A stretch of DNA of 64,000 nt. Source: Candidatus Omnitrophota bacterium (GTDB taxonomy: Bacteria > Omnitrophota > Gorgyraeia > Zapsychrales > Zapsychraceae). Positions within the stretch are counted from its first letter, which is position 1. Each line of letters begins with the position of its first letter. The notes under the pieces are model-generated. The model did no database searches and was not told the DNA's origin. It saw only the letters and a program-made list of their open reading frames with translations. Positions 7,576-59,671 of this stretch are shown one piece after another. Made by a program: the position numbers and the translations under genes. Where the stretch lies: contig JADFYJ010000010.1 in the NCBI GenBank assembly GCA_015233115.1, forward strand, positions 5,083-69,082, written 5' to 3'.

Positions 7576-7591
7576 ATACCCATCCATTAAG

Positions 7592-7640: not shown

Positions 7641-7843
7641 GTCTGTAGGACGGCAGGTTAATCAATAGAACAAATCCGCATGTGCCATCCGCGCTCTAGT
7701 CTTTCGGCAACAGTTCATGCCATATCCAGGCGGCTTGAAAGCATGTTGTCGCTAAGCAAAGAAATACAATATTTGTTAAAGAAATTTTTTCGTTAAAATC
7801 CATATACATCTCCTAACATATATAACCCTGAATCCCTCGTGGT

Positions 7844-10486: not shown

Positions 10487-10569
10487 ATAATCTCCTAATG
10501 ATACGCGCCACGTTTGACCCACCCAGCGCTTTTACAACAATCGCTTTTCACTACATGCTACATGCACTT

Positions 10570-16046: not shown

Positions 16047-16223
16047 AGTGTGTATATAATTTATCAGAATAATACATTTTACACAATTTTTAATTCCGCA
16101 GGTAATTTATTAATTTGAACCGCCTCTCCCCAATTCCGAATTATAATTCTTAATTGGGAGGGCATAGTATGTCGCATGTAACATCGATATTTTTTAAAAA
16201 TCATTTTTAAAATAAAATTATCT

Positions 16224-16244
16224 TTTCACCCAACGGGTGAAAAT
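16224..16244. promoter_or_regulatory. Perfect 9-bp inverted repeat (TTTTCACCC-aac-GGGTGAAAA) in the 276-bp intergenic region upstream of the TCS cluster.
   Basis: Read directly. It sits between a second hairpin (16285-16317) and the start of the REC gene at 16046. Candidate operator or terminator. Confidence 0.4.
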
Positions 16245-16284
16245 TTTCAACAACCACATACCACATACTACGCACAACACACTG

Positions 16285-16317
16285 CCCTAATTCTCAATTT
16301 CTAATTCAGAATTAGGG
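16285..16317. terminator. 10-bp inverted repeat (CCCTAATTCT-n13-AGAATTAGGG) immediately 3' of the SDR gene stop. Candidate terminator hairpin.
   Basis: Read directly. No strong U-tract follows. Confidence 0.4.
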
Positions 16318-38900: not shown

Positions 38901-41543
38901 TTTCGACTTGTGTAATGCGTCTAAAAAGGAAATAAGCAGAGGAGGAAAAAATATCATTTCAAATACGACACACGTCCAATGCCAAGGCGAAGGAATAATC
39001 GTCCAACTCATCAGCAAAAGGGCTATTAACGCAAATGGCACTAGACTACGCCTTAAATTATCAAAAATTTTCCATTGCGACAAAAATGATAAAGTATTTT
39101 TCTGCTTGTGCCCGTCAGATGACGGAACTTTGGACCACAACCAGCCTAATAATTGCCAATCTCCGCGGATCCAACGGTGCCGACGCCTAACATCTGTACT
39201 GTAACGGAAAAGATTTTCCTCGTACAATTCGACGTTACTCAACAGTCCGGAACGGGCATAACATCCTTCCCAAAGGTCATGGCTCAAAATCTTACCTTCA
39301 GGAAACCGTCCTTTGCACGCCCTTTCAAAAATATCCAAATCATAAATCCCTTTGCCGATAAATGAACCTTCCCCAAACAGATCCTGGTAAACATCCGAAA
39401 CCGTACGGGTATAAGGATCTATCCCCGGCTCACCTGCGTATAACCTCGCGTAAAAGGACCGATTCGCTCCTGCCAGGCTGGTACTCACCCGCGGCTGAAG
39501 TATTCCGTAGCCTTCGCAGACACATTGTTTCTGCTCGTCATAACGGGCGCGGTTTAAAGGGTGCGCCATGGTTTCTACCAGCTGACGAGCACAATCACGG
39601 GGTAATTGCGTATCTGTATCCAAGGTAATGATATATTTAACATTTTTCAATACCGCCAAATCACCTACGATGAGTAAAAATTTTTCCTGGGAGCCTCCGC
39701 GCAGCAGGCCATTTAAATCCGCTAATTTCCCGCGTTTACGTTCATATCCCATCCAAATGCCTTCACAAGGATTCCAGCTCCGTGGCCGGTGGAACAGAAA
39801 AAAAATATCAGGCCTGCCTTTTTTATATTTACTGTTAAGCTCTACAATTTTTTCCTGGGTTAATCGTAGAAGCGCATCGTCATCAGGCATAGTTTCTTGA
39901 GGCGCGTCCTGAAAGTCAGTTAATAATCCAAAATGTAATTGTTCATCCTGATTAGCCAAAAACCTCACTTCCAAGGCTTCGATAAGCCGCTCTATGTTCT
40001 GTGAACTTGTGAGCATGGTGGGCACAACTATTAAGGTAAGAAATTCCGACGGAATTCCTTTCGAAAAATCCATACGCGGCAATACCTGCGGCTTGACCAT
40101 TGACATGGCCATGTAGTTGACTAGCTCTAAGGCCAATTGACTCATGGCGACAATTAAAAAAACGCCAAAAGCCGCAGCTTTCCATGCCATAACATTCATG
40201 CCATAGAGATGGATCCAAAGGACACCCATCCCCCAAAATGTTAACACGGCAACAGCCCCGAGATACAGCAACAAGGCAAATCGTTGCGCTAATTTATATG
40301 CTTTTTCTATGATTGAAAACTGGTTCCGTACAGCTTGTTCAAGTTGTGACAATCCTTTATCGATTAAATAAAAACCGACGTGAGCGGTCCGGTCACTGAC
40401 TCCGTTTTTCCCAGCCGCTTCACTTGCTAATTGAACCGCTTTTTGCGCCACCTCACTTTCAAAAATTCCGCTCCTTTTCGCTATGTTCTCAACCACATGA
40501 CGGTAGCGGTCACGAGTAGCAAAATCCATCTGAGCATAAAATCCGGCAGGATCTTTGAGTAAAAACTTTTCGACAATACTCATTGTCTCCACAAATTCAC
40601 GCCAATCCATCGCCGACAACAAACGAAGACTTCCGATGCTATTACTGATAGACACCTGATTAGCCGCTTGTTGTTGATTTTCTAAATTAACCAAATGCTC
40701 AATGGTTAATCCCGACTCTGCCAGCCACTGATTAATCCAGGTCAACGGTAAGGCCAAGGATGGACTATGCCCCTGTAAACGGCGGGTCAGCTCAGCCACA
40801 AAAGAGCTCGACATGGGGGGGGTTGACCGTGCCATGTCCGCGACGATTAAAACTAAAGTTTTAGGTTCTCTCGCGGCAACTTCCGCCATTTGATCCGCCC
40901 AAAAATCAGCCAAATTTTGATCCATTCTTCCCACCGTGATACGAGCAGCCACCCGCCGTAGATTTTCAATCAAGGCCAGCCGCAGCATAATAGGAATGGC
41001 CCACAACTCGCCCAAATTTAACAGGGTGACTTGCTGATAAGCCTTTATAAAATTATTCAAAATTTCCAGATCTATCCGTCCATCACCATGAGCAACCATT
41101 TCTAAAGCAATGTCATACACCCTCGGCAGGCCCTGCGAAGGACCATTCATTAATAGAGGCAATTCCCGATGATAACTTTTGGGTAAATGCCGCTTAGCCG
41201 TACGAACCTGCTCTTCGATCAAATAAAAATTATCCAGCAGCCATTCACCTGCCGGCGTACCTAAACGCTTGGCCTTAACCGCCTCAGTCAGCAAGGCATG
41301 AGTTTCCCCCAGTACCATTTCGTTTTCTGTCAGCCTGGTCAAAAGCAATAGTGAAGAACGTTCCGTCGTTAATTTATGCAACCTGGCCAGCGTTTTGCCA
41401 TATTGTTTCATCTGTTCACTGCTGAACAATTCTGAGCGCAGGGGAGGCTCTTCGCGCATATGTTTGGGGAGCAAAATTTTACCGCGCAAACGCCTTAATA
41501 AATGAGAAAAAAATATTTTGATATCTGTTAATCTTATTTTCAT
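32946..41543 (-). CDS. cgs: Cyclic beta-1,2-glucan synthase (Cgs/NdvB/ChvB-like), 2865 aa: N-terminal polytopic membrane region, GT84-type glycosyltransferase domain, second TM region, and a C-terminal GH94-like (alpha/alpha)6 glucan-phosphorylase domain.
   Basis: The length is almost identical to Brucella/Agrobacterium Cgs/ChvB (about 2830-2870 aa). Domain order is TM, then GT with DxD, then TM, then a six-hairpin glycosidase/phosphorylase. This very large single ORF has no repeats. Its start is 4 nt past the stop of the downstream radical SAM gene. Confidence 0.8.
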   Translation of the reverse strand: MKIRLTDIKIFFSHLLRRLRGKILLPKHMREEPPLRSELFSSEQMKQYGKTLARLHKLTTERSSLLLLTRLTENEMVLGETHALLTEAVKAKRLGTPAGEWLLDNFYLIEEQVRTAKRHLPKSYHRELPLLMNGPSQGLPRVYDIALEMVAHGDGRIDLEILNNFIKAYQQVTLLNLGELWAIPIMLRLALIENLRRVAARITVGRMDQNLADFWADQMAEVAAREPKTLVLIVADMARSTPPMSSSFVAELTRRLQGHSPSLALPLTWINQWLAESGLTIEHLVNLENQQQAANQVSISNSIGSLRLLSAMDWREFVETMSIVEKFLLKDPAGFYAQMDFATRDRYRHVVENIAKRSGIFESEVAQKAVQLASEAAGKNGVSDRTAHVGFYLIDKGLSQLEQAVRNQFSIIEKAYKLAQRFALLLYLGAVAVLTFWGMGVLWIHLYGMNVMAWKAAAFGVFLIVAMSQLALELVNYMAMSMVKPQVLPRMDFSKGIPSEFLTLIVVPTMLTSSQNIERLIEALEVRFLANQDEQLHFGLLTDFQDAPQETMPDDDALLRLTQEKIVELNSKYKKGRPDIFFLFHRPRSWNPCEGIWMGYERKRGKLADLNGLLRGGSQEKFLLIVGDLAVLKNVKYIITLDTDTQLPRDCARQLVETMAHPLNRARYDEQKQCVCEGYGILQPRVSTSLAGANRSFYARLYAGEPGIDPYTRTVSDVYQDLFGEGSFIGKGIYDLDIFERACKGRFPEGKILSHDLWEGCYARSGLLSNVELYEENLFRYSTDVRRRHRWIRGDWQLLGWLWSKVPSSDGHKQKNTLSFLSQWKIFDNLRRSLVPFALIALLLMSWTIIPSPWHWTCVVFEMIFFPPLLISFLDALHKSKDVFWKQHLKTVFRAAAGRLAQRAFTVACLPYEAFFTLDAIVRTVVRMLITHKRFLEWNLYADTDGDSNDLIRSFLLMWIAPVTAVSVFIYLAGSAPHTLMFAGPVLLLWAVSPACVWWLSRLMPRREVKLSANQLFFLRKLSRKIWDFFETFVGQEDHWLPPDNYQETRMIKISHRTSPTNIGLALLANLSAYDFGIMTAQRLLERTENTFRSMAGLKRFRGHFFNWYDTQSLQPLLPNYISTVDSGNLAGFLLTLRPGLLALCDDKILGERWLESLKDTFLVLVDSIGDMNLFSTHQLEKDLESADEFKPATLEQVRLWLEAFGQHAEEFHTKISLSAEAEAIEWTQKLVQQCRHILDDLIFLVPKNYSGITGIPTLRELTKVEGEISTRALKRISDIERLVRQAGDFAQMEYDFLYDVKRKLLSIGYYSEERKLDSGFYDLLASEARLCYFTAIAQGQVPSESWFALGRLLTTSGGKPTLLSWSGSMFEYLMPLVVMPTYENTLLGQTYQAAVGRQIEYGKQFGVAWGISESGYNAIDANLNYQYRAFGVPGLGFKRGLTEDLVIAPYASLLALMVTPEPACLNLQRLACEGMMGQYGLYEAVDYTPSRRVRGRSSTILRSFLAHHQGMSLLALAYVLLDHPMQKRFRADPLFQANMLLLQERIPKSIPFYIHVNELSNIRALAAETQSPVRILKSPHTQVPEVQLLSNGRYHVMVTNAGGGYSRWKDMAVTRWREDTTCDNWGVFCYIRDIASGKFWSTAYQPTHKQPENYEVIFSQGRAEFRRRDYGLETHVEIVVSPEDDIELRRVRITNRSRGRRVIEVTSYSEVVLAPDMADALHPMFSNLFVQTEIIKSKQAILCSRRPRSVTEQEPWMFHLMSVHDAEIQKVSYETDRMQFIGRGYNLAEPYAMTQSHDLSGSQGSVLDPVTVIRGQMSLEPEQTVIINMVYGMGETRDKALSLIEKYHDWRIADRVFELSWTHSQVVLRQINATETDAQLFGHLAGFIIYAHASLRADPAVLIQNRRGQSGLWGSAISGDLPMVILQIGDLANVEIVRQMVQAHAYWRLKGLAVDLVIWNEALSGYRQLLQEQIMGLISATVQSQIAHNSGEIFVRPAEQISDEERILFQSVARAIISDRRGTLANQIYRHNFSEFPVEQFIPVKTFRPAIAPSLGETRHDLILFNGLGGFTPDGREYVICLSSDQVTPAPWVNVLANAHFGTIISENGLAYTWSENAHEFRLSPWNNDPVNDLTGEAFYLRDEETGQVWSPAPQPVHSRHPYLIRHGFGYSVFEHDEGGLHSELWVYVALESPVKFSVLKIRNISGRPRRLSATGYVEWVLGDLRSKTVMHVHTEVDPINGAIYARNFYNSEFSDIIAFFSTNDMGRTICADRAEFLGRNGSIHKPDALLRAHLSGRTGSALDPCAAIQVPFELADGEEREIVFTLGAGHNVEQVKNLVRNFCGSSGAQEALDAVNKYWTHTIGAVQVETPDSSLNVLANGWLIYQTLACRLWGRSGYYQSGGAFGFRDQLQDVMALNHCEPRLMREHLLLCASHQFLEGDVQHWWHPPSGRGVRTHCSDDYLWLVYATCHYVLSIGDTGVLDELVPFLRGRMVTVEEDSYYDLPKQSSEKVSLYEHCQRAIIKSLSIGQHGLPLMGSCDWNDGMNCVGQQGKGESVWLGFFLYDVLTQFIKMAQLRDDSAFVEICRAQLIQLKQNIEKNGWDGEWYRRAYFDDGALLGSAGNSECQIDSIAQSWSVLSGAADPDRGRKAMTSLNQRLVHRDTQIIQLLDPPFDKSGMNPGYIKGYVPGVRENGGQYTHAAIWAAMAFARLGDSRMAWELLDMINPVNHGKSLEEINIYKVEPYVVAADVYAVAPHVGRGGWTWYTGSAGWMYRLLLEFLLGLRLNVNQLSIEPCLPPEWKTFKIHYRYRDTLYHIEVSQILLGSGLAGVLVDGHLQENKMIELIDDHQDHRVEVRMIAENSQ

Positions 41544-43198
41544 GGATGGGACGCAAAAGGATAACCGTCCTGCCGGATATGACCTTTCGCAATCTGCAGT
41601 TTTTCAACAAATCGGTTTTTCTTAAAATTCAAATTCCATTCCTTGACAATACCCCAGCCTAAAACACGAAGCAGATCATTTCGCCAATAGCGATACCAAT
41701 TGATCCATCCCCGCTGAATATCATGAAAGAATATAATCACCGCGGGTAGCATCAAAATATCCAAACCAATTTTTAAAAAATATTTGAACTGATAAAACGA
41801 CGTCATGATTTGCTTCTGGGAGGCCTGCATTTCTTCCGCGGTCAACGGAGCATCCGGTTCAAAAATTGGAAAATTACCGTCATAAAATTCCCAACCAATA
41901 TAACGGATATCATAAATTCTTTTTTGCCGTTTAAGCCGCTCAGTCATTAACGTTCCCGGTAAAGGTACCGGAAGCAAAACTTGCACAGTATCAAGCTTGG
42001 CTTTTCGGATAAATGTTAAATAACGCTCAACCCGCTCTTTCGCTGTCATGGTAAAATGCGTACCTTCATCCAGAGGATATCCAAAAATAAACATGCCATG
42101 CACCAAAAACCCGAAATCATGAAAAATTTTAGTCAGCGCCAGCATATCTTCTGGTTGAATATGTTTATTCATGGCCTTTAATTCTTCAGCAATAGGCGAC
42201 TCATAACCAATACAAACCTTATTAATCCCCGCCTGATACATGGCTGAAAGAAGCTCCGGATCTTTGGCTTTATCCAGCCTAATCTGCGCCGTAAAATCAA
42301 GTTTTTTACCAATACGTTTTTGATAATCTTTAAGGATATAACAAAAACGGATCGTCTCATCCCGGTACTGTCCGAACAGATCATCCACAATAAAAAAATG
42401 CCGGGCATCCCGGGTCTCTACCAAAATACTGATCTGCGCCAAAAGACGTTCCGGTCTCGCCGGCCGCGGCTGACCCTTCACAGTACAAAATTCGCAATCC
42501 ATGCCACAGCCCCGAATTCTTTCTACAGGATAAATTTTTATCCGGGCATACCGTACTAAAGAAAAATCCGGTAAAGGCAATTGATCAAAATCAGCTAACT
42601 TTTCTCTTTCGCCGGTAAAAAATAATTTTCCATTTTTAAAATACGCGAGACCTTTGACTTGATCAATCTCTCCCTGGCCCATAATCGCGGCTAATAATTC
42701 TTTAATGACCAGTTCTCCTTCTCCGATAACGACATAATCGATTCCATGTGACAAAGCATCTAAAATATTATCCCCGGAAAAATGCTGACCTCCCGCGACT
42801 GTAATGACCCCTCTGCTTTTATAAAAACCAGCGACTTCATAAAGCCTGGGAACCGTGCTCGTTAATCCACCATAAAAACCGACCACATCCGCGGGTCTTT
42901 GCCTTTGCATGCGTCCATGATCCGGCTGGTCAAACTCGTCTTTGGGGGCATGCAAGGAAAAATTATTTTCATCAATAACTTCAGCATCCCAATTGGACAT
43001 TTTGTGGACGTTGGTGGCCACATAAACCGGCCCCAAACACGTTGTCATCCTGGCAATGTTCGAATAAACATTAAATGCCGGATAAGCAGGAATAACCATC
43101 CTAAATCTATATTTATTCATAGGTATATTATCTGCAAATTCAGATATAGATAAATGGGCGGAATCGTTTTTATATAGACTTTTTTCGCACATCCACAA
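41540..43198 (-). CDS. B12-binding-domain radical SAM enzyme (class B radical SAM; methyltransferase-like).
   Basis: The N-terminal region is cobalamin-binding-like. The radical SAM motif is CGMDCEFC (CxxxCxxC). Its start overlaps the cgs stop (ATGA). The start is uncertain (43198, or the internal ATG at 43120). Confidence 0.75.
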   Translation of the reverse strand: MWMCEKSLYKNDSAHLSISEFADNIPMNKYRFRMVIPAYPAFNVYSNIARMTTCLGPVYVATNVHKMSNWDAEVIDENNFSLHAPKDEFDQPDHGRMQRQRPADVVGFYGGLTSTVPRLYEVAGFYKSRGVITVAGGQHFSGDNILDALSHGIDYVVIGEGELVIKELLAAIMGQGEIDQVKGLAYFKNGKLFFTGEREKLADFDQLPLPDFSLVRYARIKIYPVERIRGCGMDCEFCTVKGQPRPARPERLLAQISILVETRDARHFFIVDDLFGQYRDETIRFCYILKDYQKRIGKKLDFTAQIRLDKAKDPELLSAMYQAGINKVCIGYESPIAEELKAMNKHIQPEDMLALTKIFHDFGFLVHGMFIFGYPLDEGTHFTMTAKERVERYLTFIRKAKLDTVQVLLPVPLPGTLMTERLKRQKRIYDIRYIGWEFYDGNFPIFEPDAPLTAEEMQASQKQIMTSFYQFKYFLKIGLDILMLPAVIIFFHDIQRGWINWYRYWRNDLLRVLGWGIVKEWNLNFKKNRFVEKLQIAKGHIRQDGYPFASHP

Positions 43199-46100
43199 TT
43201 AAAGGAAGGTGATCTGAGGCTAATTTTCCGAGGTCAGTCCGGGCGACAGCCACATGCGTTACTTCCAAATCTTCGCTCACGAAAACATGATCGATCCGGC
43301 CGATCGGATAATGACTAAACCACGTCGAGCGGGGACGGTGATGTTCCAGTTCGGTCTGGGCATCATTAAGAACTACCTTTATATCGCGGCAAAAAGCGGA
43401 ATTGGGAAGGGAATTTAGGTCACCGCATAAAACTACCGGGCCCGTACACGCGGGATGGCCTAACCACTCTGACCCCAATATTGCTTCAACTTGATGCGTA
43501 CGTTCCCAAGGTAAAACACTTAAATGAGTATTAAGAAATTGCAACCGCATATCTCCGATGTTGATGGCGGTCCACAACGCGCCGCGCGGCTCTGCCCAGG
43601 AATATTTCCCTGTGCCAGGCAAAGCTCCAGCACGAACCAGTTCCATGGGATAACGGCTTAAAATGGCATTGCCATACCGCTCTTCTTCAATCTGAAAAGA
43701 CGGATGAAAATGAACCATCATTTCTAATTGTTGCGCGATAATATGAGGTTGATCAACTCCCCCAGTGCGCGCCCGCTTCATATCTAATTCCTGAAGCGCG
43801 ACAATGTCAGGCTTAAGCCGGGCAATAACCCTGGCGATCCGTTCTGGCGAAATCTTGCCGTCGGTTCCAATACACCCATGGACATTAAAAGTCATAATTC
43901 GAATGGACTTATTAATGCCTTCATTCTGTTTGTAGGGAATAACATTGCCTATGAGCGTTTTGGCACAATCGCTTTCCCGTTCCAAAAATTGCAGGGCCGC
44001 TGTCCGCAAGTCCATAGTCACCACATATGGCTGGTTCTCCGACAAATGGACGACATCGGAAGGCAACAAAGCAAAAGCATTAGTTTCTTCCCAACCAGGT
44101 CCGGCATGAGACCCACTTTCAGAGGGAAAGGTCAGGTTTTTTTGACCCGGCCGGAATCCCATAAACGTAAAATTACCGGCATTAGGATGCTGGCATAGTT
44201 GAATAAGATCAGCGGTGACCGCCGCTAAATAAGGATGATCCTCTCCAAATATTTTTTTAGCATCCTGAGGTAATATAAACTCGCCATCCTCTCTCCACAC
44301 TCTAACCTGTCCATCTTCTTCCGGACGCATAACGACCGGGATTTTCGCCTGCTCAACTAATTTCCGTGCCAGTCTAACCTCATCATCCCTGCTCATTTGA
44401 GCCGGTAAATAGATATTACCCGTCGGGCCGATTGCCGTCACCACCAGTTTCGCCGCCTGTTCTGTGTCGTATGGAAGACTTGTATCCAATTTGGGAGTAT
44501 TTGTCTTGCCCAAAAACCTTACCCGTGTTAACTGGGAGCCAGTCGCCGCCGAAGGATGAACCACAAATTCAGATGAATAAAACTCCTTGAGTATTTCTAC
44601 CACAGCAGTTTCAACACTCCGGCCATATTTTATATGATATGAATCCGCCTCTTCTTGACCATGATCCGAATAAATCCAGACATCATAACGGCGCAGAGAA
44701 GAATGCATGGCTGTATTATAAATATTCTGGATAGCCCGGTCGATCCCTGGTAAAGTCCAACGAGCGGATCTTGATGACGGACCGCGATTATGAGAATGCT
44801 CGTCATAACCCAATAAATTAAAATGGATAATCGGCATACCGCGGGCCAGGTCCATCTTGACTCCCAAAATCACCAGTTCCCGTAACATCACACTTATTAA
44901 AGCGCGCAGATAAATAAATTTTATTTCATTTTTAAAATTTTTTTCCGCGAATAACCGCCAGCCATAATCTATGGTGCCTAAAATAATTTCCCAGCCCATT
45001 AACACAATCATCCGACCAAAAGCGAATAAATGCGTCGTAATTAAAACGGCTAAACTCCAAAGATTAAAATCTTTCCAAATTTTATTCCACCCTAAAAGAG
45101 CCGCACAAAAATGAGCTTCTTTTGCTCCTCCGGTAAAAATGTTTGAATACGAACTTCCGCCATCTAAAAGTCCCGGCCCCGTTAGAGCGAGACGACGTTC
45201 GATTTCGCTGGCCGCATCCCCATCATACATGGTGAATACTTTTTGAGTGTCCTGATCCCTAAATGAAAACGCGGGCACGCTTTGTTTTTTTCCATAAAAT
45301 AATTCTCCCTGAACCGCGGCGGTATTAGAAGGAAGGCCGGTATAAAGGGGATATAGTTCATACTGCTGCCGCGCTAATAGATTTTTCAAAAAAGGCATTT
45401 TATTGTCGGTTAGCGCAATTTTGAGCTGTGTTTGTGAAAATCCGTCGATTTGGATCATGACCAAACCCGGACAACTAGCCGTGTTCCCGCTTTTTAATAC
45501 CGGCTTTTGGGCGACAGTGGTCGCGTCCGACATAGCCATTCCCGTAGCTTTCATCATATTTTTAAACATTTCCCATTCGACTTTTAACCGATTGGCCAAA
45601 GCATGCCACGCCGTATCTTTCTCCTCAGATAAAATAATTTCTTTTTTTAAGACTTCTTCATACACCCTAAGCATTTTGGGGGCACACACCTCAATCGAAA
45701 ATTCTTGAACACTGATCCGTGCCTGTTGTTTCATCCGAAGATATTCTTCGTAGGGCTGATTCACACATCCCTGCAATGCCTCGACAAAATCGCCCTGATC
45801 CTGATGAAAAATTAACCGGCCATTATCCTGGTCTTTCACCACTTCCCTGACTCCTGTGGCGTCCAGAGCGACCACCGGCACGCTGGCAGCCATTGCCTCC
45901 AGAAGTACAATACCCTGTGTTTCACTCAGTGATGCGAAAGCAAAAACATCCATGGCATGATACGCGTCAACCAAATCCTGACCTTGCAAAGGACCAAGTA
46001 ACCGCATTCGTTCTCCTACGCCTGCTTCATGAAAAATTTTTTTGATGTCTTCTTCCAACGGCCCATTCCCGACCAACATCACATAAGCAGATGGATTTTT

Positions 46101-46784
46101 TTTCAAATATTCTGTTGTACACTGACTCAAAAATTCCAAATTTTTTTCTATAGCTAACCTTCCGACAAAACCAACCACCTTGGAGTTAAGGGGTATTCCC
46201 CAACGTTTGCGGATCACGCTTCCTTGTCCGTTGGCAAATTTTTTTAAGTCAATCCCTGTTGGCACAACCGTAATCGGCGACAGCACACCGCGCTCCACCA
46301 AGAGATCCTGGACGCTTTGGCTGGGAGCAATCACCTGGTCAGCCAGATTAGCATAACCGGCAGTCAATTCTATGACAAAACGCCTCATGCCTTCGTTTTG
46401 AACCGGAAGATAATGCATGTGATGTTCAAACATGGTGTGATAGGTAAACACTAAAGGGATATGATTTTGCCGGCATAAACGCAACGCAATGTCACCCATC
46501 CAAAACGGATGGTGGCTATGAACAATATCCGGCTGATACTGTTTCATCAATTCCGGTAAAAGACCCGACATGGGCAGAGCCATGGAAAAATTCGAATGAT
46601 TAAAATTTTGAATAGCTCTTATGCGCACCACACCTTCTTCATCAGGAGGCGCTCCTTCTGCTTCCGGTGCGACAATAATAACCTGATGCCCTAATTTTTC
46701 AAACCTATCCGTGAAGGATTGTATCGACTGCTCAATCCCTCCCACCATAGGAGTAAATGAATTGGTCATCATCAAAATTTTCAT
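43170..46784 (-). CDS. Three-domain enzyme: N-terminal GT4 glycosyltransferase, central alkaline-phosphatase-superfamily (type I phosphodiesterase / phosphotransferase, OpgB/LtaS-like) domain with internal TM helices, and C-terminal endonuclease/exonuclease/phosphatase (EEP) domain.
   Basis: GT4 N-terminus (GGIEQSI...HSHHP). VMIQIDGFSQ and GYDEHSH metal-site-like motifs in the middle. The C-terminus has MTFNVHGC...DIVALQEL...DHVFVS, typical of EEP. Confidence 0.65.
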   Translation of the reverse strand: MKILMMTNSFTPMVGGIEQSIQSFTDRFEKLGHQVIIVAPEAEGAPPDEEGVVRIRAIQNFNHSNFSMALPMSGLLPELMKQYQPDIVHSHHPFWMGDIALRLCRQNHIPLVFTYHTMFEHHMHYLPVQNEGMRRFVIELTAGYANLADQVIAPSQSVQDLLVERGVLSPITVVPTGIDLKKFANGQGSVIRKRWGIPLNSKVVGFVGRLAIEKNLEFLSQCTTEYLKKNPSAYVMLVGNGPLEEDIKKIFHEAGVGERMRLLGPLQGQDLVDAYHAMDVFAFASLSETQGIVLLEAMAASVPVVALDATGVREVVKDQDNGRLIFHQDQGDFVEALQGCVNQPYEEYLRMKQQARISVQEFSIEVCAPKMLRVYEEVLKKEIILSEEKDTAWHALANRLKVEWEMFKNMMKATGMAMSDATTVAQKPVLKSGNTASCPGLVMIQIDGFSQTQLKIALTDNKMPFLKNLLARQQYELYPLYTGLPSNTAAVQGELFYGKKQSVPAFSFRDQDTQKVFTMYDGDAASEIERRLALTGPGLLDGGSSYSNIFTGGAKEAHFCAALLGWNKIWKDFNLWSLAVLITTHLFAFGRMIVLMGWEIILGTIDYGWRLFAEKNFKNEIKFIYLRALISVMLRELVILGVKMDLARGMPIIHFNLLGYDEHSHNRGPSSRSARWTLPGIDRAIQNIYNTAMHSSLRRYDVWIYSDHGQEEADSYHIKYGRSVETAVVEILKEFYSSEFVVHPSAATGSQLTRVRFLGKTNTPKLDTSLPYDTEQAAKLVVTAIGPTGNIYLPAQMSRDDEVRLARKLVEQAKIPVVMRPEEDGQVRVWREDGEFILPQDAKKIFGEDHPYLAAVTADLIQLCQHPNAGNFTFMGFRPGQKNLTFPSESGSHAGPGWEETNAFALLPSDVVHLSENQPYVVTMDLRTAALQFLERESDCAKTLIGNVIPYKQNEGINKSIRIMTFNVHGCIGTDGKISPERIARVIARLKPDIVALQELDMKRARTGGVDQPHIIAQQLEMMVHFHPSFQIEEERYGNAILSRYPMELVRAGALPGTGKYSWAEPRGALWTAINIGDMRLQFLNTHLSVLPWERTHQVEAILGSEWLGHPACTGPVVLCGDLNSLPNSAFCRDIKVVLNDAQTELEHHRPRSTWFSHYPIGRIDHVFVSEDLEVTHVAVARTDLGKLASDHLPLIVDVRKKSI

Positions 46785-46805: not shown

Positions 46806-49064
46806 CTATTTATCAAACTCATAAAAACTTGTTTTTGCTGGTACAGTAATTTTTGGAAAACCAGTCAAATAAATTTCCATCTCTGGTTCTTTGGTAAACC
46901 ATGTCCCCTGCCATTCAACCATAATTTTTTGCCCTACCGGCTTTATCAAAATTTTAATATCTCCAAAACTTGTTGGCGCGGGGCCAAAAATCATATCCGT
47001 TTTGGTGTCGAGCCAGGTTTGCGGGATTCCTGAACATAAAATCAACCGGCCTTGTTCTTCACGGACAAAACAATTTCGAATCATGAGCGCCCATTCAGCG
47101 GCTGCCCAAACGTGCTGTCCATCACCCATACATCCGCCCAAGGTGCGGGGATGAATCGCTTCAGGCCACTGTCCAGTCGAGGTTGCGCCATCCGCAACCG
47201 CTGTCATAAGTTCAAAATACCGAGGATCGCCCGCGCGTAAAAAAGTTTGGGCTAAATGTAAAGTCAAGTAAGGATTAATGCCTGAATGAGTCATATCATG
47301 AAAAAACCCGCCTTTTACTAAACAATTCTCCATTAAAAAATTTGCCGTTCCCAAAACTCGCTGATCATGGGGCTTTAAAAGCCGAAGCGGATAGCTGGCA
47401 GCCAAAGAACCAATGGCCCCTGAATCTAAACGGCGGTATGGCGACGCTGGTATAGACTCATTTTTTATACGGTCTGCTGCTTTTAATAAACTTTTATCAA
47501 TACTGTCCGACAGAGCGTAAGCTTCATTTTCAAAATCCACAGCCTGATTGTGATCATGATACCCTTCACATAAGTATGCCGCAGCCTGCAAACCTGATAC
47601 GGACCAAAAATCATCCCAAAAATAAAAATCGTTCGGTCCTAAATGTTCAGCGCTAAAGCCTGACGGCATTAATCCAGCATGGACAAATTTTAAATCTTTA
47701 GACAACCTTTTTTTGACAATCCACCTTCCTCCTTTATAAATGGACTCTTTCCATTTTGGCGATGGCGCTTCGCCGGTCATTTCGCAATATTGACGCATAA
47801 TCCATAACGCTTCCCCATTCGAATCCCACTCTCCTTCTTGGGAAAGAAAATAGCCTGGGGGCGTTTGTCTAGACCGAAAAGTCTCTAACGCCCTGGCTAC
47901 CCGTCTTTTAAACCCTGTGCACAACAAAGCATATAAAATAAAAGCCGCGTCCCTAAACCAAAATCGTTTATAAATATACGGGCCAGGATAAACCTCATGA
48001 GGGGAATGTAAAATCATGGTTCTAACGGCAGTGTCATAAAGAAATTGAAAATGCTGATCAGGAATTTGCAAAGCACACATTCCACTCAAACTTTGATCCC
48101 AGGCTTCCTCAGCATTTTCCTGGTATTCTGCCACTTTCTCTTTTACAAAAACATTTTTCGTTAAAGGAATTGAAACCGTAACCTCCCGATTCAATTCTGG
48201 TTCAAGTTTAAATAACGCGGCGGCAGTGGCCATACCGACTTTGCAAAATACTCCCGGCTCATCGTCTTGAATTGACAACCGCGTATAAACATCCCCTTGG
48301 TGATAATAAGAAAAAATATTGCGGTCAGGAGGTTGATCAAAATCTATCTGGTCTTTTTCATTGACTTGCCAGCTTGAACGATCAGCCATCACTTTGATAT
48401 TATGGACAAAACTGACACCTTCCGGATTATACGGACGCAAAGAAATGACCAGCCATCCCGCCGACGGCATGGTTCCTGAAATGCGAATTTGACATACCGG
48501 GCATAAAGCCGTTCCCACCATTTGCACTTTATTCTGAAGTTTTAATTGGTCCTGCTGGCATATGGTTATAATACTTAAATTTTTGTCACTCATGAAGTGT
48601 TGCGACACCTCAAGCAAGCGGGAAGGGAGTAAAGGCGTTCCTTTTTCCGGAATGAGCCACGCATCAATCGACCAGCCATCGTATAACGGCGTCACTAGTC
48701 CCCGTCCGTCAACAATGGAATATTCATTGCTGTCCGGAATACCTACTGCTGTCCAGTTGCGATGCGTCAAATTGATTTGGGTTAAAGAAAAAGCCCGGGG
48801 AATGAATGCGTCATTACGCGGATCATACTGACACTCAATCCAATATGGCCAAATCCAATCTAAATTATGTTGAATAGCCAAGCTATTGATCAAGCCCCGG
48901 CTGTGCAACACAACTCCTGAGCGCAACAATTCTGTAGGCGCGGTTACTTCTGATGGTTGCGCAAAATTTTGTAACTGAGCTAAAATTTTAATTGGATCTA
49001 AAAACCCGTGTTTGCGCGCCGCACTGCGAATCAGATATCTCCAAGGAAGCCATTTGAGCCACAT
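46806..49064 (-). CDS. Large (alpha/alpha)6-barrel glycoside-hydrolase-like protein (GDE_C/GH15/GH63-type fold). Assignment is tentative.
   Basis: The C-terminal half shows the periodic W/G/D-rich helix pairs of six-hairpin glycosidases. No unambiguous catalytic signature was identified. Confidence 0.4.
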   Translation of the reverse strand: MWLKWLPWRYLIRSAARKHGFLDPIKILAQLQNFAQPSEVTAPTELLRSGVVLHSRGLINSLAIQHNLDWIWPYWIECQYDPRNDAFIPRAFSLTQINLTHRNWTAVGIPDSNEYSIVDGRGLVTPLYDGWSIDAWLIPEKGTPLLPSRLLEVSQHFMSDKNLSIITICQQDQLKLQNKVQMVGTALCPVCQIRISGTMPSAGWLVISLRPYNPEGVSFVHNIKVMADRSSWQVNEKDQIDFDQPPDRNIFSYYHQGDVYTRLSIQDDEPGVFCKVGMATAAALFKLEPELNREVTVSIPLTKNVFVKEKVAEYQENAEEAWDQSLSGMCALQIPDQHFQFLYDTAVRTMILHSPHEVYPGPYIYKRFWFRDAAFILYALLCTGFKRRVARALETFRSRQTPPGYFLSQEGEWDSNGEALWIMRQYCEMTGEAPSPKWKESIYKGGRWIVKKRLSKDLKFVHAGLMPSGFSAEHLGPNDFYFWDDFWSVSGLQAAAYLCEGYHDHNQAVDFENEAYALSDSIDKSLLKAADRIKNESIPASPYRRLDSGAIGSLAASYPLRLLKPHDQRVLGTANFLMENCLVKGGFFHDMTHSGINPYLTLHLAQTFLRAGDPRYFELMTAVADGATSTGQWPEAIHPRTLGGCMGDGQHVWAAAEWALMIRNCFVREEQGRLILCSGIPQTWLDTKTDMIFGPAPTSFGDIKILIKPVGQKIMVEWQGTWFTKEPEMEIYLTGFPKITVPAKTSFYEFDK

Positions 49065-49083
49065 TTTTTTATCCTTTGAAAGG

Positions 49084-49229
49084 CATGTAGCATGTCGTAT
49101 GTAGTATGTAGTAAAAACGTAAAGTAAAAAAACATAAATATTTCTTTAAAATTTGGTTATCAAGTTTTTGCATTTATTTTACACCAATCGCTTGTTCGCC
49201 ACATGCTACATGCTACATACGACATACTA
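49084..49229. repeat. About 146-bp element bounded by roughly 30-bp imperfect inverted repeats built from CATGTAG/TCGTATG/TAGTATG heptamer units, enclosing an AT-rich core. Candidate miniature inverted-repeat element or structured regulatory region.
   Basis: The left arm is CATGTAGCATGTCGTATGTAGTATGTAGTA (49084-49113). The right arm is ACATGCTACATGCTACATACGACATACTA (49201-49229), which is its approximate reverse complement. Confidence 0.55.
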
Positions 49230-49265
49230 TTTTTTAAACACCAACCATTTAAACCTATTCATCGA

Positions 49266-49991
49266 TTATTCGTAAAGATCAACTTTTATTTTAGTCTTCA
49301 TTTTTTCTTCATCGCCCTTTCTACTTTTCATAGTCAAAAGGTAGTTATGTCCAGCGCCACCCAATAATTTCAAAGGAACCCTTGCCTGATCTTGGCTGAT
49401 CCAAACTTCAAATTTCCTCGGATCACTAACAAAATGATACGCTTTATAAATACCAGCTGGAATTTTGATCTCCTCAATTGACGCAAGCGTAATTTTATAA
49501 GCATCCGGCAAATACGTGTAATACGTCCACCCCAATCCAGGCGCAGAAACAGTCCGCAAATAAAACGGCAAAAGTACGGCACTTTGAATCGCGCCTTTAG
49601 CCTTGAAGTGATACTCCTTGATCACTCTCTCTCCCTTATATTTTTTTATGACTACCGAGCAAGCATCCGCAGAATACTCCTCAATAATATGCTCTTTTAC
49701 AAAAAGAAATTTTATTTGCCGTTCTACTTTGACCGGTAAAAATTTGACAGGATCAGCATAAATTTTTTCGAGATCATCAAACCCAAAAACATGCGTTCTA
49801 AAAGTGATCAATCTCACTGTTTTTCCGTCGAGCTCAGTCAATCCCCAATCGTTATATTCTGCTATTCCCAAACCTGCTATTTTGTAAATAATTTTTTCCA
49901 CCGAATGATCGACGGCGAAACTTTGCTTTGTCCACAAAAAACCAACGGCAAAGATTATAAAAACCACGAAAGTAATAAATAGTTTTCTCAT
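49266..49991 (-). CDS. Secreted hypothetical protein (signal peptide; possible DUF3108-like beta-rich protein).
   Basis: N-terminal signal peptide MRKLFITFVVFIIFAVGFLWTKQSFA. No catalytic motifs. Confidence 0.35.
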   Translation of the reverse strand: MRKLFITFVVFIIFAVGFLWTKQSFAVDHSVEKIIYKIAGLGIAEYNDWGLTELDGKTVRLITFRTHVFGFDDLEKIYADPVKFLPVKVERQIKFLFVKEHIIEEYSADACSVVIKKYKGERVIKEYHFKAKGAIQSAVLLPFYLRTVSAPGLGWTYYTYLPDAYKITLASIEEIKIPAGIYKAYHFVSDPRKFEVWISQDQARVPLKLLGGAGHNYLLTMKSRKGDEEKMKTKIKVDLYE

Positions 49992-52597: not shown

Positions 52598-52634
52598 AAA
52601 AGTAACAGTAACGCGAGCCTAAAACAAATCAAAT

Positions 52635-52688
52635 AAATAGTGACAGGCACCAATTTTTTAATAACAAAATTGGTGCCTGTCACTATTT
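52635..52688 (-). terminator. Long-stem (about 23 bp) perfect hairpin immediately after the hypB stop, followed by a U-rich tract on the minus strand. Probable operon terminator.
   Basis: AAATAGTGACAGGCACCAATTTT-loop-AAAATTGGTGCCTGTCACTATTT, then ATTTATTTGATTTGTTTT on the minus-strand transcript. Confidence 0.6.
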
Positions 52689-53361
52689 ATTTAAAACATT
52701 CCGCAATCTTATGAACTAAAACACAATCTTGGACAAAATCAATCCATGAAGCAAAGCCCTCTCCCGAACAACTATCAACAGTAATGACTTCTCCTTTTTT
52801 ATTCAATTGTTTAAACGCGGCAAGAGCTATCGCTAAATTAAAATTTGTATGCTCAATCAGTTTTAATTTGGTGATAACTAATATCTCTGCTTCTGAAAAA
52901 AGCAAAGGATATTTCTCAACCTTGTCATCTCCTTCTGTGACGCTTAACACCGCGATCTTTCCATCCTCACCAATATCAAATTCTGCGGGACAGACCAGAT
53001 TGCCGATGTTTTCCACAAAAATCAATTCCGGGTTAACATCATTGATCAATTCTTTTAAAGCGGTATTAACCAAATGCGCGTCTAAATGACAGGCGTTACC
53101 CGTATTGATCTGATATGCCGCCACTCCCATTTTTTCAATCCGCGCCGCGTCTTTCGTAGTCGCGATATCTCCTTCGATGACCGCCATTTTAATTGTTTTA
53201 CCTAAAAGCGCGATCGTCTGTTCCAGCAATGTCGTCTTACCTGCGCCGGGAGAACCAATAATATTGAGCATGGTGATGCCGTGTTTTCTTAGCAATAACC
53301 GGTTTTCTTCTGCCCAGGCGTCGTTCGCGCTTAATAATTTATCCATCACATTAATTTTCAT
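52687..53361 (-). CDS. hypB: Hydrogenase nickel-incorporation GTPase HypB.
   Basis: GSPGAGKTT P-loop and the CxxC...C metal site of HypB. Context next to hypA. Confidence 0.9.
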   Translation of the reverse strand: MKINVMDKLLSANDAWAEENRLLLRKHGITMLNIIGSPGAGKTTLLEQTIALLGKTIKMAVIEGDIATTKDAARIEKMGVAAYQINTGNACHLDAHLVNTALKELINDVNPELIFVENIGNLVCPAEFDIGEDGKIAVLSVTEGDDKVEKYPLLFSEAEILVITKLKLIEHTNFNLAIALAAFKQLNKKGEVITVDSCSGEGFASWIDFVQDCVLVHKIAECFK

Positions 53362-55225: not shown

Positions 55226-55456
55226 TTATGAACTTTTTTTAGAATTCAATTCCAACGTTTTACCATTTGTATCGACGGGTTTAGTATCCATAGTCATTTC
55301 CGCGTCAATGGTTTCCTTGATTTCACTAGTCGCTTTTTTAAATTCCCGCATGGACTTCCCCAGTGTGCGCGCCAATTCCGGTAAATTTTTTGAACCAAAC
55401 AACAGTAAAATAATAAACAAAATTACCATTAATTCACCCATGCCTAATCCAAACAT
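55226..55456 (-). CDS. tatA: Twin-arginine translocase TatA/E-family protein (copy 1).
   Basis: MFGLGMGELMVILFIILLLFG...F-K amphipathic helix. GGAGG RBS. Confidence 0.85.
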   Translation of the reverse strand: MFGLGMGELMVILFIILLLFGSKNLPELARTLGKSMREFKKATSEIKETIDAEMTMDTKPVDTNGKTLELNSKKSS

Positions 55457-55526
55457 ACAGCCTCCTTTTTAAAGTAAAAAGTTAAAATTAAAAAGTGAAA
55501 GTAAAGCAAAACCAAAAACGTAAAAA

Positions 55527-55694
55527 TTATTTTTTTGATTCGGCCAGATTCTTTTCTTCTGTATCCCGGCCTGCTTTTTTGAATTCTCTGATGGACTCTC
55601 CTAACGACCGGGCTAAATCCGGAAGCCGGCGCGCGCCAAACAACACCAAAATAATCATCAAAATCACTAGTAATTCGCCCATACCTAAATTCAT
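55527..55694 (-). CDS. tatA: Twin-arginine translocase TatA/B-family protein (copy 2). The start is MNLGMGELL at 55694, with a GGAGG RBS.
   Basis: [37 protein letters not shown]. The track ORF begins upstream at 55730, but the RBS supports 55694. Confidence 0.8.
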
Positions 55695-55744
55695 AAAACC
55701 TCCATTTTTTAAAAACCACCCAGGGTCCACCGCGTCAGTGGACT

Positions 55745-57688: not shown

Positions 57689-59671
57689 TTAATTATCTGA
57701 CGTGTTCGACATATTTATTCTCACCACACTTTTTTCGACTATTTCCAGTCCGGATACAGCTCTCACTCTTCCCGGCTGAGAACTAACACCAGCCGCTCTG
57801 ACTGACCAAGAACCGTCAGAAGAAATCGTCGTTGTGGTGTATATTTTTCCGCTTGTCGCATTACTGACAGTCACTCTCGCTCTAGCCTTACCCTGACCGG
57901 ACACTGTTAAAGTTCTGTTATGATAATCCCATACCGCTCTGGTTATCGTCAGAACCGTAGATGGCGGCGGTGGAGGTGGCGGCAGCGGCACATTACTGAC
58001 AGACACCGTCAGGCTTTGTCCTTGCGACGAAGCTATTATTGTCGACGGTATCGATGCTGGATTTGTCAGCGTGAACATCCATTGGCCATTCGCCGTAACG
58101 GGGGTTTGACCTAGCGTTATGCCGCTGGAATTTTTGATGACAACAACTGCCGCTGCCACACCTGTCCCTTGAACATTTAATTGATTAGACCCCGCAATCC
58201 ATTGCGCGTTGCTAATGGCAAACACGACCGGAGGCGGCGGGGGTGGAGGCACATTGCTAACCTGGACCGTCAGACTTTGCCCTTGGGACGTTGCCGTCAC
58301 TGTCGCCGGTATCGTAGCCGGATTTGTCAGCGTGTACGTCCACTGACCATTCGCCGCAATCGTGGTTTGCCCTAACGTGGTGCCGCCAGCATTTTGGATG
58401 ACCACAACTGCCGCTGCCGCACCTGTCCCTTGTACATATAATTGATTAGAAGCCGCTATCCATTGCGCGTTGCTGATGGTAAACACCAGTGGCGGCGGCA
58501 TTGCCGGAACATTACTGACGGGTGCAAATAAAACATCCGCATTTAATTTAGCCACAATCGAAACGGGCACAGCCGCCGGGTTATTCACCGTCAACGTCCA
58601 GGCTCCGGATGAATTCGGAACAGACTGCCCGATCAGCGCACCTAAATATTCTTCAACAATGACGGTTGAAGCAGGTGTCCCTTTCCCTGAAACAGTTAAC
58701 TGTTTTGATGTATTATTCCAGGCGGCAGATACGACCTCAAATAGAGCCGGACCAGTCCCTGTCACGGCAGTCAGACTATACATAGGAGAAAATCCGTCAG
58801 GAAATCGGCTGTCCGTACATCCCATACACTGCGAATTAGCGCCAATGCACCAATTCGTCCCATTGTTCCATAAACGTTTAGGACAATCTGCTTGAGTCGA
58901 AGGGCCTTTACAACCAAGATTTCTCATACACAAAGAATCTACCCCGAAGGTCGTGGCTTTACTGCGATCTTGCCGCGGACAATTTTCATGGACATTATTG
59001 TTCTCCCCGCCATACAGGGCAGATGGTCTTCCTGAACTATCCAATGCCGGTATAATACCAGCAATCAGTTGCGCAATGGTCCAGATAATCCAATCCGGAT
59101 GGGCAGGACAGCCAGCGATATTGATGGTTGGTTTGCCGATGGCAGCACTTAAGCTTTGAATTTGTGTCGGATTCGGTGCAGCGGCAGATATACCACCAAA
59201 ACTAGCGCAAGTCCCAATCGCTAAATTAGCGATGGAATTGGCTGACAACTGACGTACAGCGTCTAACGCGGTTATTTCCTGCCCGTTTTCTGTCCACAAA
59301 AGACAGGTATTACCATTAAATGCCGTCGGGATTCCGCCTTCGACAGCCAAAACGTAAGGATTTTTGGTCGCATTACGGAGATTGGCCACCGCTAAATCAC
59401 CAGCCGCGCCCATAAGATTGGGATGAAATGCCAGATCAATATGATTGATCAAAAGATCTGCGACATCTAAAGGTTCAGTAGCGGATATACGATTCGCCAA
59501 TGATACGGTACAACCGGTGCAGGTCGCTGTGCTCAGCCAAATGACTGTGGGTATCCCCGGCCCGCTGGCGGCAAACGCCTTTTGCAGCTGGCCGATCGCC
59601 GAGGCGTCCAACCCCAATAATGCTGCTGAAGAAACACAATACTTTAAAAATTCTCTCCGACTTATTCGCAT
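57689..59671 (-). CDS. [NiFe] hydrogenase small subunit with a Tat signal peptide and an unusual C-terminal extension of about 300 aa made of tandem Ig-like repeats separated by polyproline linkers.
   Basis: MRISRREFLKYCVSSAALLGL (twin-Arg). Fe-S cluster cysteine motifs (ATCTGCTVS, GTCASFGG, GCPAHPD, CxxC-rich distal region). Three repeats with VSNVPPPPPPP linkers. No hydrophobic C-terminal anchor. Confidence 0.85.
   Translation of the reverse strand: MRISRREFLKYCVSSAALLGLDASAIGQLQKAFAASGPGIPTVIWLSTATCTGCTVSLANRISATEPLDVADLLINHIDLAFHPNLMGAAGDLAVANLRNATKNPYVLAVEGGIPTAFNGNTCLLWTENGQEITALDAVRQLSANSIANLAIGTCASFGGISAAAPNPTQIQSLSAAIGKPTINIAGCPAHPDWIIWTIAQLIAGIIPALDSSGRPSALYGGENNNVHENCPRQDRSKATTFGVDSLCMRNLGCKGPSTQADCPKRLWNNGTNWCIGANSQCMGCTDSRFPDGFSPMYSLTAVTGTGPALFEVVSAAWNNTSKQLTVSGKGTPASTVIVEEYLGALIGQSVPNSSGAWTLTVNNPAAVPVSIVAKLNADVLFAPVSNVPAMPPPLVFTISNAQWIAASNQLYVQGTGAAAAVVVIQNAGGTTLGQTTIAANGQWTYTLTNPATIPATVTATSQGQSLTVQVSNVPPPPPPPVVFAISNAQWIAGSNQLNVQGTGVAAAVVVIKNSSGITLGQTPVTANGQWMFTLTNPASIPSTIIASSQGQSLTVSVSNVPLPPPPPPPSTVLTITRAVWDYHNRTLTVSGQGKARARVTVSNATSGKIYTTTTISSDGSWSVRAAGVSSQPGRVRAVSGLEIVEKSVVRINMSNTSDN

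Follow-up and report, generated by a model that had tools for sequence, protein, structure and literature searches.

Within a 64,000-nucleotide stretch of the genome of a Candidatus Omnitrophota bacterium (assembly GCA_015233115.1, contig JADFYJ010000010.1, positions 5,083 to 69,082; hereafter the window), positions 49084-49229 hold a 146-bp element, here called El1, that consists of two inverted heptamer arrays around an A+T-rich core. Nearly all genes of the window lie on the minus strand, and El1 fills most of the 201-nt spacer between two of them. On one side lies a gene for a 241-aa protein (49266-49991, minus strand, no Pfam family), the last of a string encoding a PAS histidine kinase, a GNAT protein, a DUF2062 protein and the 241-aa protein; its stop codon, at 49266, is 36 nt from the right arm of El1. 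On the other side, a gene for a 752-aa protein (46806-49064, minus strand, no Pfam family) opens a glycan/cyclic-glucan cluster, with its ATG at 49064, 19 nt from the left arm, and its ribosome-binding site (RBS), AAAGGA, 8 nt from that arm. Since all genes here are on the minus strand, El1 follows the 241-aa gene on its 3' side and precedes the 752-aa gene on its 5' side. A first-pass annotation, made from the sequence alone, had placed the element between the glucan locus and the next gene; it does lie in that spacer, but on the 5' side of the glucan locus, whose first gene is the 752-aa gene, and not on its 3' side. The statement in the same annotation that no open reading frame (ORF) is present was essentially right, the only ORFs overlapping El1 being two short ones of 40 and 54 aa on the plus strand, opposite to every real gene there.

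The left arm of El1 (49084-49113), proximal to the 752-aa gene, reads on the plus strand as the four units CATGTAG, CATGTCG, TATGTAG and TATGTAG followed by TA, and conforms to the unit consensus YATGTNG. The right arm (49199-49229), on the side of the 241-aa gene, reads on the same strand as CCACATG, CTACATG, CTACATA and CGACATA followed by CTA, that is, as four CNACATR units, the reverse complement of a YATGTNG array. Tandem Repeats Finder called a period-7 array of 4.1 copies in each arm. An inverted-repeat search recovered 24-nt arms that are 92% complementary and 94 nt apart, together with shifted registers that included a perfect 13/13 match, and in a register scan the arms paired in four registers at offsets 7 nt apart (23/26, 21/28, 17/21 and 16/19). 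Neither arm contains an inverted repeat of its own, the arms being direct heptamer arrays, and no unit has a run of three or more Gs. GTAG occurs within five of the eight heptamers, where it is base-paired in the predicted stem, and the remaining units carry GTCG or GTGG. Between the arms, the non-coding core (49114-49198) is 85 nt long and 76.5% A+T, compared with 57.1% for the whole window, and shows partial internal complementarity (GTAAAGTAAA / TTTATTTTAC).

The arrangement is far beyond what chance would produce. Sequences matching an El1 arm with at most three mismatches occurred twice in the window and 0.00 times in 100 shuffles; the two-arm pattern was found twice against an expectation of 0.00; and the double heptamer YATGTNGYATGTNG was found eight times against 0.02 expected, all eight being intergenic. 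The sequence agrees with the first-pass description of a 146-bp, heptamer-built element bounded by inverted repeats, and the two arms of roughly 30 bp described there as approximate reverse complements of each other pair at 23 of 26 positions in their best register. The core is A+T-rich, as had been stated, and measures 85 nt by the arm boundaries used here, rather than the 87 of that reader.

A search of the window for further copies of the arms, a check that the annotation had proposed for the rest of the genome, found two more sites. A second two-armed copy, El2, lies at 16162-16273 between a short-chain dehydrogenase (SDR) gene and a response-regulator gene, with arms GCATAGTATGTCGCATGT / ACATACCACATACTACGC that are 83% complementary and 76 nt apart, around a 72-nt core of 78% A+T. 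The third, El3 (10530-10566, minus strand), is a half copy: it comprises GCATGTAGCATGTAG and 23 nt homologous to the edge of the El1 core, has no inverted partner array, and begins, within a 47-88-nt spacer, just past a VIT1-family gene's stop codon. El3 and positions 49177-49213 of El1, which span two heptamers and the 23 nt of adjoining core, are 89% identical over 37 nt (blastn E = 4e-6). All three elements are intergenic and between co-oriented genes, at 36 (El1), 50 (El2) and 4 nt (El3) from the upstream stop codon, and at each of them the array that comes first after the upstream gene reads as YATGTNG in the direction of transcription. El2 is itself bracketed by related palindromes at 16129-16158 and 16285-16317 (CCCAATTCCGAATTA... 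/ CCCTAATTCTGAATTAGAAATTGAGAATTAGGG), giving a nested, symmetric structured spacer of 190 bp. A candidate shared subterminal motif, TTGKTGWAAAA, occurred three times against 0.67 expected, with El2 not an exact match, and was dropped.

We then considered the relatives of the gene that follows El1. The closest homologue of the 752-aa protein (HQL26_06680) elsewhere in the collections is 69% identical, and homologues were present at 75 loci, including about ten from Omnitrophota at 51-68% identity. The double heptamer was absent from these 75 loci (~0.9 Mb), those of other Omnitrophota included, and no El1-like element was present upstream of the homologues in them; in its place, most have GtrA upstream, as a gene or a domain. 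Since the upstream regions of the relatives lack the element, El1 is a lineage-specific addition and not a conserved regulatory region, and among relatives carrying 752-aa homologues the heptamer unit is specific to this genome. As a separate observation, most of the homologues are ~880-930 aa long with an N-terminal GtrA domain that is missing from the 752-aa protein, and El1 occupies the place of the relatives' GtrA coding sequence.

The same architecture was found in other organisms. We scanned metagenome contigs for three heptamers, 70-100 nt and three inverted heptamers, and obtained 12 elements at 11 loci whose G+C content ranged from 31% to 61%. Their units were CATGTTG, TATGTAG, TATGTCG, TATGTGG, CATGTCG or TATGTTG, mostly in arrays of 3-6 (eight in one locus, L080) and mostly with spacers of ~45-90 nt. 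At least two of the 11 loci belong to hosts outside Omnitrophota, namely a gammaproteobacterial metagenome-assembled genome and a lineage of Patescibacteria, the latter assigned by its DnaN, which is closest to proteins of Candidatus Moranbacteria. The elements lie between ribBA and ribH, after dnaN, among the flagellar genes flgI and flgK, after an acyl-CoA dehydrogenase gene, near genes for a 3-hydroxyacyl-CoA dehydrogenase and a ThiF/MoeB-type protein, and between a convergent pair of ORFs (L085). These flanking genes are ordinary, and the distribution is that of a REP-like repeat (REP, repetitive extragenic palindrome) rather than of a regulon. Six copies from one metagenome share their arms and a diverged but alignable core (73% mean column identity), and each folds on both strands as a long, imperfect, rod-like hairpin. 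The cores of El1 and El2 had no significant homology to the cores from other genomes. Other heptamers build an equal architecture, such as GAGTAGA/GAGCGGA in L081 (631-695) and ACGAACA/TGTTCGT in the Patescibacteria locus L087 (7150-7340), and at 8990-9100 of L087 an AGCCAGT array stands opposite TTACTAC; the architecture is therefore more general than YATGTNG. One of the 11 loci, L080, was set aside: it is repeat-dense, with CGACATG/CAACATG-type arrays along the whole contig, which suggests satellite DNA of a possibly non-bacterial organism. In unrelated genomes (L076, L078, L082, L084, L086, L087 and L089), GGAAG just inside one arm faces CTTCC inside the other and would form a second short helix; this inner motif is absent from El1 and El2.

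Patescibacteria offered a comparison between close relatives. Over 2,079 nt, up to and including the dnaN stop codon, contigs L077 and L087 share 98.99% identity. Past that stop codon, L077 carries an element of four GTAGCAT units, a core and five TACATAC units, and in both L087 and L088 the site is held by an unrelated inverted array. The best match to the L077 element is at another locus of L087 (2660-2773), where arms and core together align at 80.5% identity over 118 nt (E = 1e-18). This L087 copy, which has a polysaccharide-flippase-type gene on one side and a jag/KhpB-type gene on the other, is retained in L089 at the orthologous site, inside a continuous alignment of 79.6% identity; in L089 one arm has a TGTGTAG unit, and the other has CTACACA to match. 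In L092, whose DnaN is 77% identical, the orthologous site holds a visibly decayed version. GTAG is present in every heptamer of the Patescibacteria copies. As judged from these alignments, such elements are copied from locus to locus and vary between strains that are otherwise nearly identical, and a copy may either persist or decay. The array after dnaN in L087 (7150-7340), which takes the place of the YATGTAG-armed element of L077, consists of an inverted ACGAACA/TGTTCGT array followed by three tandem units of ~50 nt, and the site downstream of dnaN looks like a hot spot for repeat replacement.

Heptamer arrays were also seen in these contigs inside genes called as family-2 glycosyltransferases, with ten tandem heptamers (TTTGTAG/CTTGTAG/TCAGTAG) at 499-568 of L087 and six (TAACTTG/CAACTTG) at 631-673 of L092. 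Gain or loss of one unit in those arrays would shift the reading frame, making a phase-variation switch possible.

El1 was predicted to fold strongly as RNA. The folding energy was -46.4 kcal/mol for the plus strand (z = -6.1) and -44.0 kcal/mol for the minus strand, which is the sense strand for the neighbouring genes (z = -3.3); as single-stranded DNA, the minus strand gave z = -2.9, and the RNA of the El2 region gave z = -7.9. Folding had been put forward as a check in the first-pass annotation, and the strong hairpin appears on both strands. A long stem-loop acting on the transcript of the upstream operon, one of the candidates named there, agrees with the energy of about -44 kcal/mol predicted on the sense strand, but the operon is a different one: because the genes run on the minus strand, the upstream operon is the DUF2062/241-aa operon and not the glucan locus. 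In the six-copy metagenome alignment, the pairs were 91.8% complementary, compared with 29-46% when slid. An impression by eye of compensatory changes in the apical hairpin of the six-copy family had no statistical support on the MAFFT alignment. RNA-binding sites of the HutP or TRAP type, with UAG triplets at a 7-nt period, were rejected on reasoning by hand, the part of the unit conserved across families being AUGU.G and not UAG.

Intergenic heptamer arrays paired in inverted orientation are a kind of repeat that has already been described. The closest known case is that of the GGGAATC heptamer repeats of Xanthomonas, with ~185 arrays per genome, a modal length of four units, 89-93% of arrays intergenic, and a mean distance of 28 nt from the upstream ORF, near its stop codon (Rehm et al. 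2015, PMC4692102). These arrays occur 70-75 times per genome as convergent inverted pairs that could form stem-loops; they are not linked to gene classes or insertion sequences, and their function has been attributed possibly to G-quadruplexes (PMC4692102). El1 resembles them in its tandem heptamers with variable positions, its approximately four units per arm, its intergenic and dispersed occurrence and its closeness to an upstream stop codon, and both El1 and El2 consist of two close arrays in convergent orientation. It differs in that YATGTNG is not G-rich and no G-quadruplex is possible, in its host, a member of Omnitrophota, and in its count of three sites in the window. Heptamer arrays are also known from Nostoc, as convergent GGGGAYT pairs (PMC4692102), from heterocystous cyanobacteria, as the STRR heptanucleotide repeats (cited in PMC4692102), and from Beggiatoaceae, Cyanobacteria and Bacteroidetes, as TAACTGA repeats that are almost always direct (one indirect among 169 sets) and in Beggiatoaceae lie next to start codons (PMC4679880). 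The repeats described here share with STRR and TAACTGA repeats their short, genome-specific, intergenic arrays, often by start or stop codons, and their patchy distribution; unlike the TAACTGA repeats, El1 is defined by the inverted pairing of two arrays. A cyanobacterial STRR/HIP1 context was rejected: HIP1 has four sites in the window and is not enriched, it is absent from the metagenome loci, and the organism belongs to Omnitrophota.

A second comparison is with REPs and REPINs. These are GTAG-tagged palindromes thought to be mobilised by RAYTs (REP-associated tyrosine transposases), with spacers that are conserved or variable depending on the family (PMC3116915, PMC3733652). REP dimers have spacers of 20-100 bp and can fold as one large stem-loop (PMC3733652; PMC3116915), and REPs are found mostly between co-oriented or convergent genes, downstream of coding regions (PMC3116915, PMC3733652). 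The elements of the window are similar in forming an inverted doublet with a spacer (85 nt in El1, 72-76 nt in El2) that folds as one hairpin, in the occurrence of a singlet (El3), and in their position downstream of genes. GTAG recurs in both, although the likeness is loose: REPs carry GTAG (or CGTC) as an unpaired terminal tag, whereas in El1 it lies inside five of the eight heptamers and is paired in the predicted stem, and other units and families have GTCG, GTGG or GTTG. The elements of the window differ from REPs in that each arm is a tandem heptamer array rather than a 20-40-nt imperfect palindrome, and in that no RAYT gene, which defines a REP system, was present among the ~55 ORFs of the window that we scanned.

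El1 also resembles MITEs (miniature inverted-repeat transposable elements) in its terminal inverted repeats, small size, lack of coding capacity and RNA hairpin. Among these, the Correia elements of Neisseria (NEMIS/CREE) and the ERIC sequences of enterobacteria are non-coding, ~100-160 bp long, located between genes and bounded by terminal inverted repeats of ~26-30 bp; they are co-transcribed with their neighbours, and their hairpins are cut by RNase III or alter mRNA stability. In Correia and ERIC elements the terminal repeats are defined and the cores homogeneous, and target sites are duplicated, whereas the arms of El1 are simple repeats, no target-site duplication is seen and the cores of El1 and El2 differ. 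Homologous internal sequence amounts in the window to the 23 nt common to El1 and El3, and is found in the class at large in the Patescibacteria copies and in the six metagenome copies. A parent insertion sequence with the same terminal repeats was absent from the window and had no match in plasmid, phage or viral-contig collections, and the element itself likewise matched no viral contig, plasmid or phage. The first-pass suggestion of a MITE-like mobile element therefore fits the further copies in the window and the strain-level gain and replacement seen in the class, but not the lack of target-site duplications and of a parent insertion sequence.

Our combined findings show a repeat that is real, multi-copy, intergenic, capable of forming a hairpin and absent from relatives, and that belongs to a class that turns over between strains. 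The family has arms of approximately four YATGTNG units (28-30 nt) that face each other across a spacer of ~75-90 nt. On balance, we think it probable, if not by far, that El1 belongs, as one copy among several, to a family of dispersed, non-coding extragenic palindromes, similar to REP dimers or REPINs and akin to the convergent heptamer pairs of Xanthomonas. If El1 acts at all, it probably does so as an RNA stem-loop, by analogy with such families and in view of the predicted folding energy.

Several observations weigh against the extragenic palindrome interpretation or against a role at the RNA level. The window holds three sites with heptamer arrays, and the cores of El1 and El2 have no significant similarity, so that within the window only the arms and the 23-nt flank are demonstrably repeated. 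The turnover of the class was seen in another phylum, and in the genome of the window it is only the similarity of El1 and El3 that points the same way. That YATGTNG is common to different phyla may in part be an ascertainment effect of the search pattern. Pfam scans of the 64 kb found no transposase, recombinase or invertase, and none of the Y1/RAYT type, among the ~55 ORFs. No target-site duplication was evident flanking El1 or the metagenome copies, although short ones could be hidden because the ends of the arrays are ragged. With regard to RNA, a scan for intrinsic terminators was negative at El1, where the stem is followed by CUUUCAAAGG; because no U-tract follows the stem, El1 does not qualify as a canonical terminator. 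The six-copy alignment showed no more covariation than shuffles did, the pairs being mostly invariant, and the asymmetry of G-U and A-C pairs showed no consistent strand preference across copies. The better-folding strand varies between copies, and selection on the RNA can therefore not be told from upkeep of a DNA palindrome.

The absence of a transposase from the window, of target-site duplications and of a covariation signal would also be expected if the element were neither mobile nor functional, its arrays having expanded by local slippage and the inverted partner having arisen by template switching, as a quasi-palindrome. That the arms consist of simple tandem repeats able to pair in several registers, that the cores of El1 and El2 are unrelated and that the orthologous copy in L092 is decaying agree with such a neutral by-product. 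We nonetheless regard this as unlikely, although it deserves more weight than the other rivals considered here, since local processes of this kind do not readily account for the 23 non-repeat bases beside the array common to El1 and El3, for the homology of the Patescibacteria copies at two loci over both arms and core (80.5% over 118 nt), or for the core common to six copies of one metagenome. Arm length also stays near four units across genomes, as in Xanthomonas, and one orthologous copy has persisted over ~20% nucleotide divergence. Mere coincidence, in the form of a fortuitous palindrome with no family and no function, can practically be dismissed: the chance expectation is close to zero, there are extra copies in the window and 11 loci in metagenomes, and the repeat statistics refute it.

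Functional alternatives start from the position of El1 beside the 752-aa gene. The arrays could be operators around the promoter of the glycan/cyclic-glucan cluster, with a multimeric regulator looping or occluding the core. El1 and El2 are indeed each followed closely by the opening gene of a string (the 752-aa gene for El1, a response-regulator/kinase operon for El2), their cores are 76-78% A+T with the arrays symmetric about them, and TTGATA-17 nt-TATTTA can be read on the sense strand of the El1 core. However, the -10 candidate matches three of six positions, and a consensus scan of 48900-49400 found no promoter (neither promoter nor terminator signals were enriched over shuffles in 20 kb of this genome); similar architecture occurs elsewhere between convergent ORFs, within clusters (ribBA-ribH, flagellar) and right after stop codons; the El3 half copy sits in a spacer of 47-88 nt; and no gene for a DNA-binding regulator adjoins El1. 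A 7-bp period also puts successive sites on different faces of the helix, which counts against operators, and we consider this reading improbable. That El1 is a structured regulatory RNA, be it a small RNA gene or a 5' leader of the 752-aa gene whose stem encloses a functional loop or binds a protein, is a little less probable still. Strong predicted folding and the closeness of El1 to the RBS speak for it, as do other short tandem repeats just 5' of start codons at 7590-7641 and 52600-52625, but El1 matched no Rfam family at the gathering threshold (relaxed thresholds gave only sub-threshold matches to generic or miRNA-precursor-like hairpins), the cores of El1 and El2 are not conserved, and there is no bracketing promoter or terminator, no covariation and no consistent strand bias. 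The small RNA gene listed as a candidate in the annotation is disfavoured on the same grounds, namely the lack of an Rfam match and of promoter or terminator signals and the unrelated cores of the copies. Inverted repeats upstream of a polysaccharide-type locus are a classic setting for phase variation, and in El1 they flank a short A+T-rich segment directly upstream of such a locus, so that the core might be flipped, and the glycan cluster switched on and off, by a recombinase or through homologous recombination of the two 29-nt inverted arms. We judge this very improbable: no recombinase or invertase is encoded in the 64 kb, the promoter scan was negative, 85-94 bp is a very short segment for synapsis, the arms consist of variable simple repeats with no defined core site, and similar architecture occurs beside dnaN, ribH and flgI and between convergent ORFs. 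The lack of a recombinase and the presence of like architecture between housekeeping genes elsewhere also tell against the recombination site proposed in the first-pass annotation.

If El1 is a member of a dispersed extragenic palindrome family, a possible course of events can be outlined. The arrays, with or without adjoining sequence, would be copied to new intergenic sites by a process acting on DNA; a transposing enzyme with its gene elsewhere is one candidate, and template switching together with recombination another. Their tandem structure would then let the number of units and the pairing register drift. Within the 201-nt spacer between two co-oriented gene strings, both arms of El1 would be included in read-through transcripts, where a predicted stem of ~28 bp (-44 kcal/mol) would close an A+U-rich loop 8 nt upstream of the RBS of the 752-aa gene. 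Such a stem may block 3' exonucleases, be cut by a double-strand-specific RNase, or both, and the stability of the upstream message might in this way be uncoupled from that of the glycan-cluster message.

A broader proposal, to which we attach little confidence, is that heptamer-array palindromes, defined as two inverted arrays of approximately four NNNGTNG units with a spacer of 50-100 nt, constitute a distinct class of non-autonomous mobile DNA over several phyla (Omnitrophota, Patescibacteria, Gammaproteobacteria and others), copied by an enzyme that recognises the heptamers. This enzyme would perhaps be a RAYT-like single-strand transposase, given the recurrent GTAG. To our knowledge, the cause of the over-representation of heptanucleotide repeats between bacterial genes is not settled; such a mobile class, if it exists, would also explain why they are over-represented in many bacterial genomes.

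The cluster that follows El1 includes, after the 752-aa gene, a gene for a 1204-aa fusion of a GT4 glycosyltransferase, a type I phosphodiesterase and an endonuclease/exonuclease/phosphatase (EEP) domain (43170-46784), then one for a B12-binding radical SAM protein of 552 aa, and a gene for a 2865-aa GH94 protein similar to cyclic beta-1,2-glucan synthases (32946-41543). Together, the fusion, the radical SAM protein and the GH94 protein suggest a pathway for a modified cyclic glucan.

Other repeats and unusual genes were seen elsewhere in the window. The spacer that separates a HypB-like gene from the PAS histidine kinase gene holds a 27-bp inverted repeat (52631-52692) that is perfect, encloses an 8-nt loop and carries T-rich tails on either strand; it has the appearance of a strong terminator acting in both directions. 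TAGTGACAG, found in its arms, is complementary to the CTGTCACT unit repeated at 7590-7641. There, 6.5 tandem copies of an 8-mer (ACTCTGTC/ACTCTGTT) on the minus strand stand immediately 5' of what is probably the ATG of a LigB-family gene, and at 52600-52625 three GTTACT units are found just 5' of the start of the histidine kinase gene. This genome seems to favour short tandem repeats in 5' leaders. The small subunit of a NiFe hydrogenase (57689-59671, 660 aa) is unusually extended by a bacterial Ig-like (Big_6) region, for which a tandem duplication of 261 nt (58005-58486) codes. Upstream of the hydrogenase genes, an ORF that fuses HypC/HupF to a radical SAM domain (61179-62525) adjoins a second radical SAM/BATS protein. 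Two small TatA-like genes, below the 100-aa cut-off of the ORF listing, stand in tandem upstream of tatC (55230-55700), separated by a T-rich run with a 7-nt periodicity (55471-55505).

The two-armed, four-unit layout built from a unit that cannot form a G-quadruplex, together with the strain differences in Patescibacteria, points to the hairpin or palindrome itself, and not the G-quadruplex, as the common denominator of such repeats, and to their fast turnover. Caution is needed in annotation, where long stems such as this one may pass for invertible promoters, small RNA genes or terminators. A unit that is not G-rich, an occurrence in several phyla and turnover at the level of strains bear on the question of why intergenic heptamer repeats are so common, here in a host phylum that has barely been studied. 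For the organism itself, El1 stands at the junction of a signalling/DUF2062 gene string and a glycan/cyclic-glucan cluster, and it could set how strongly the two are coupled.

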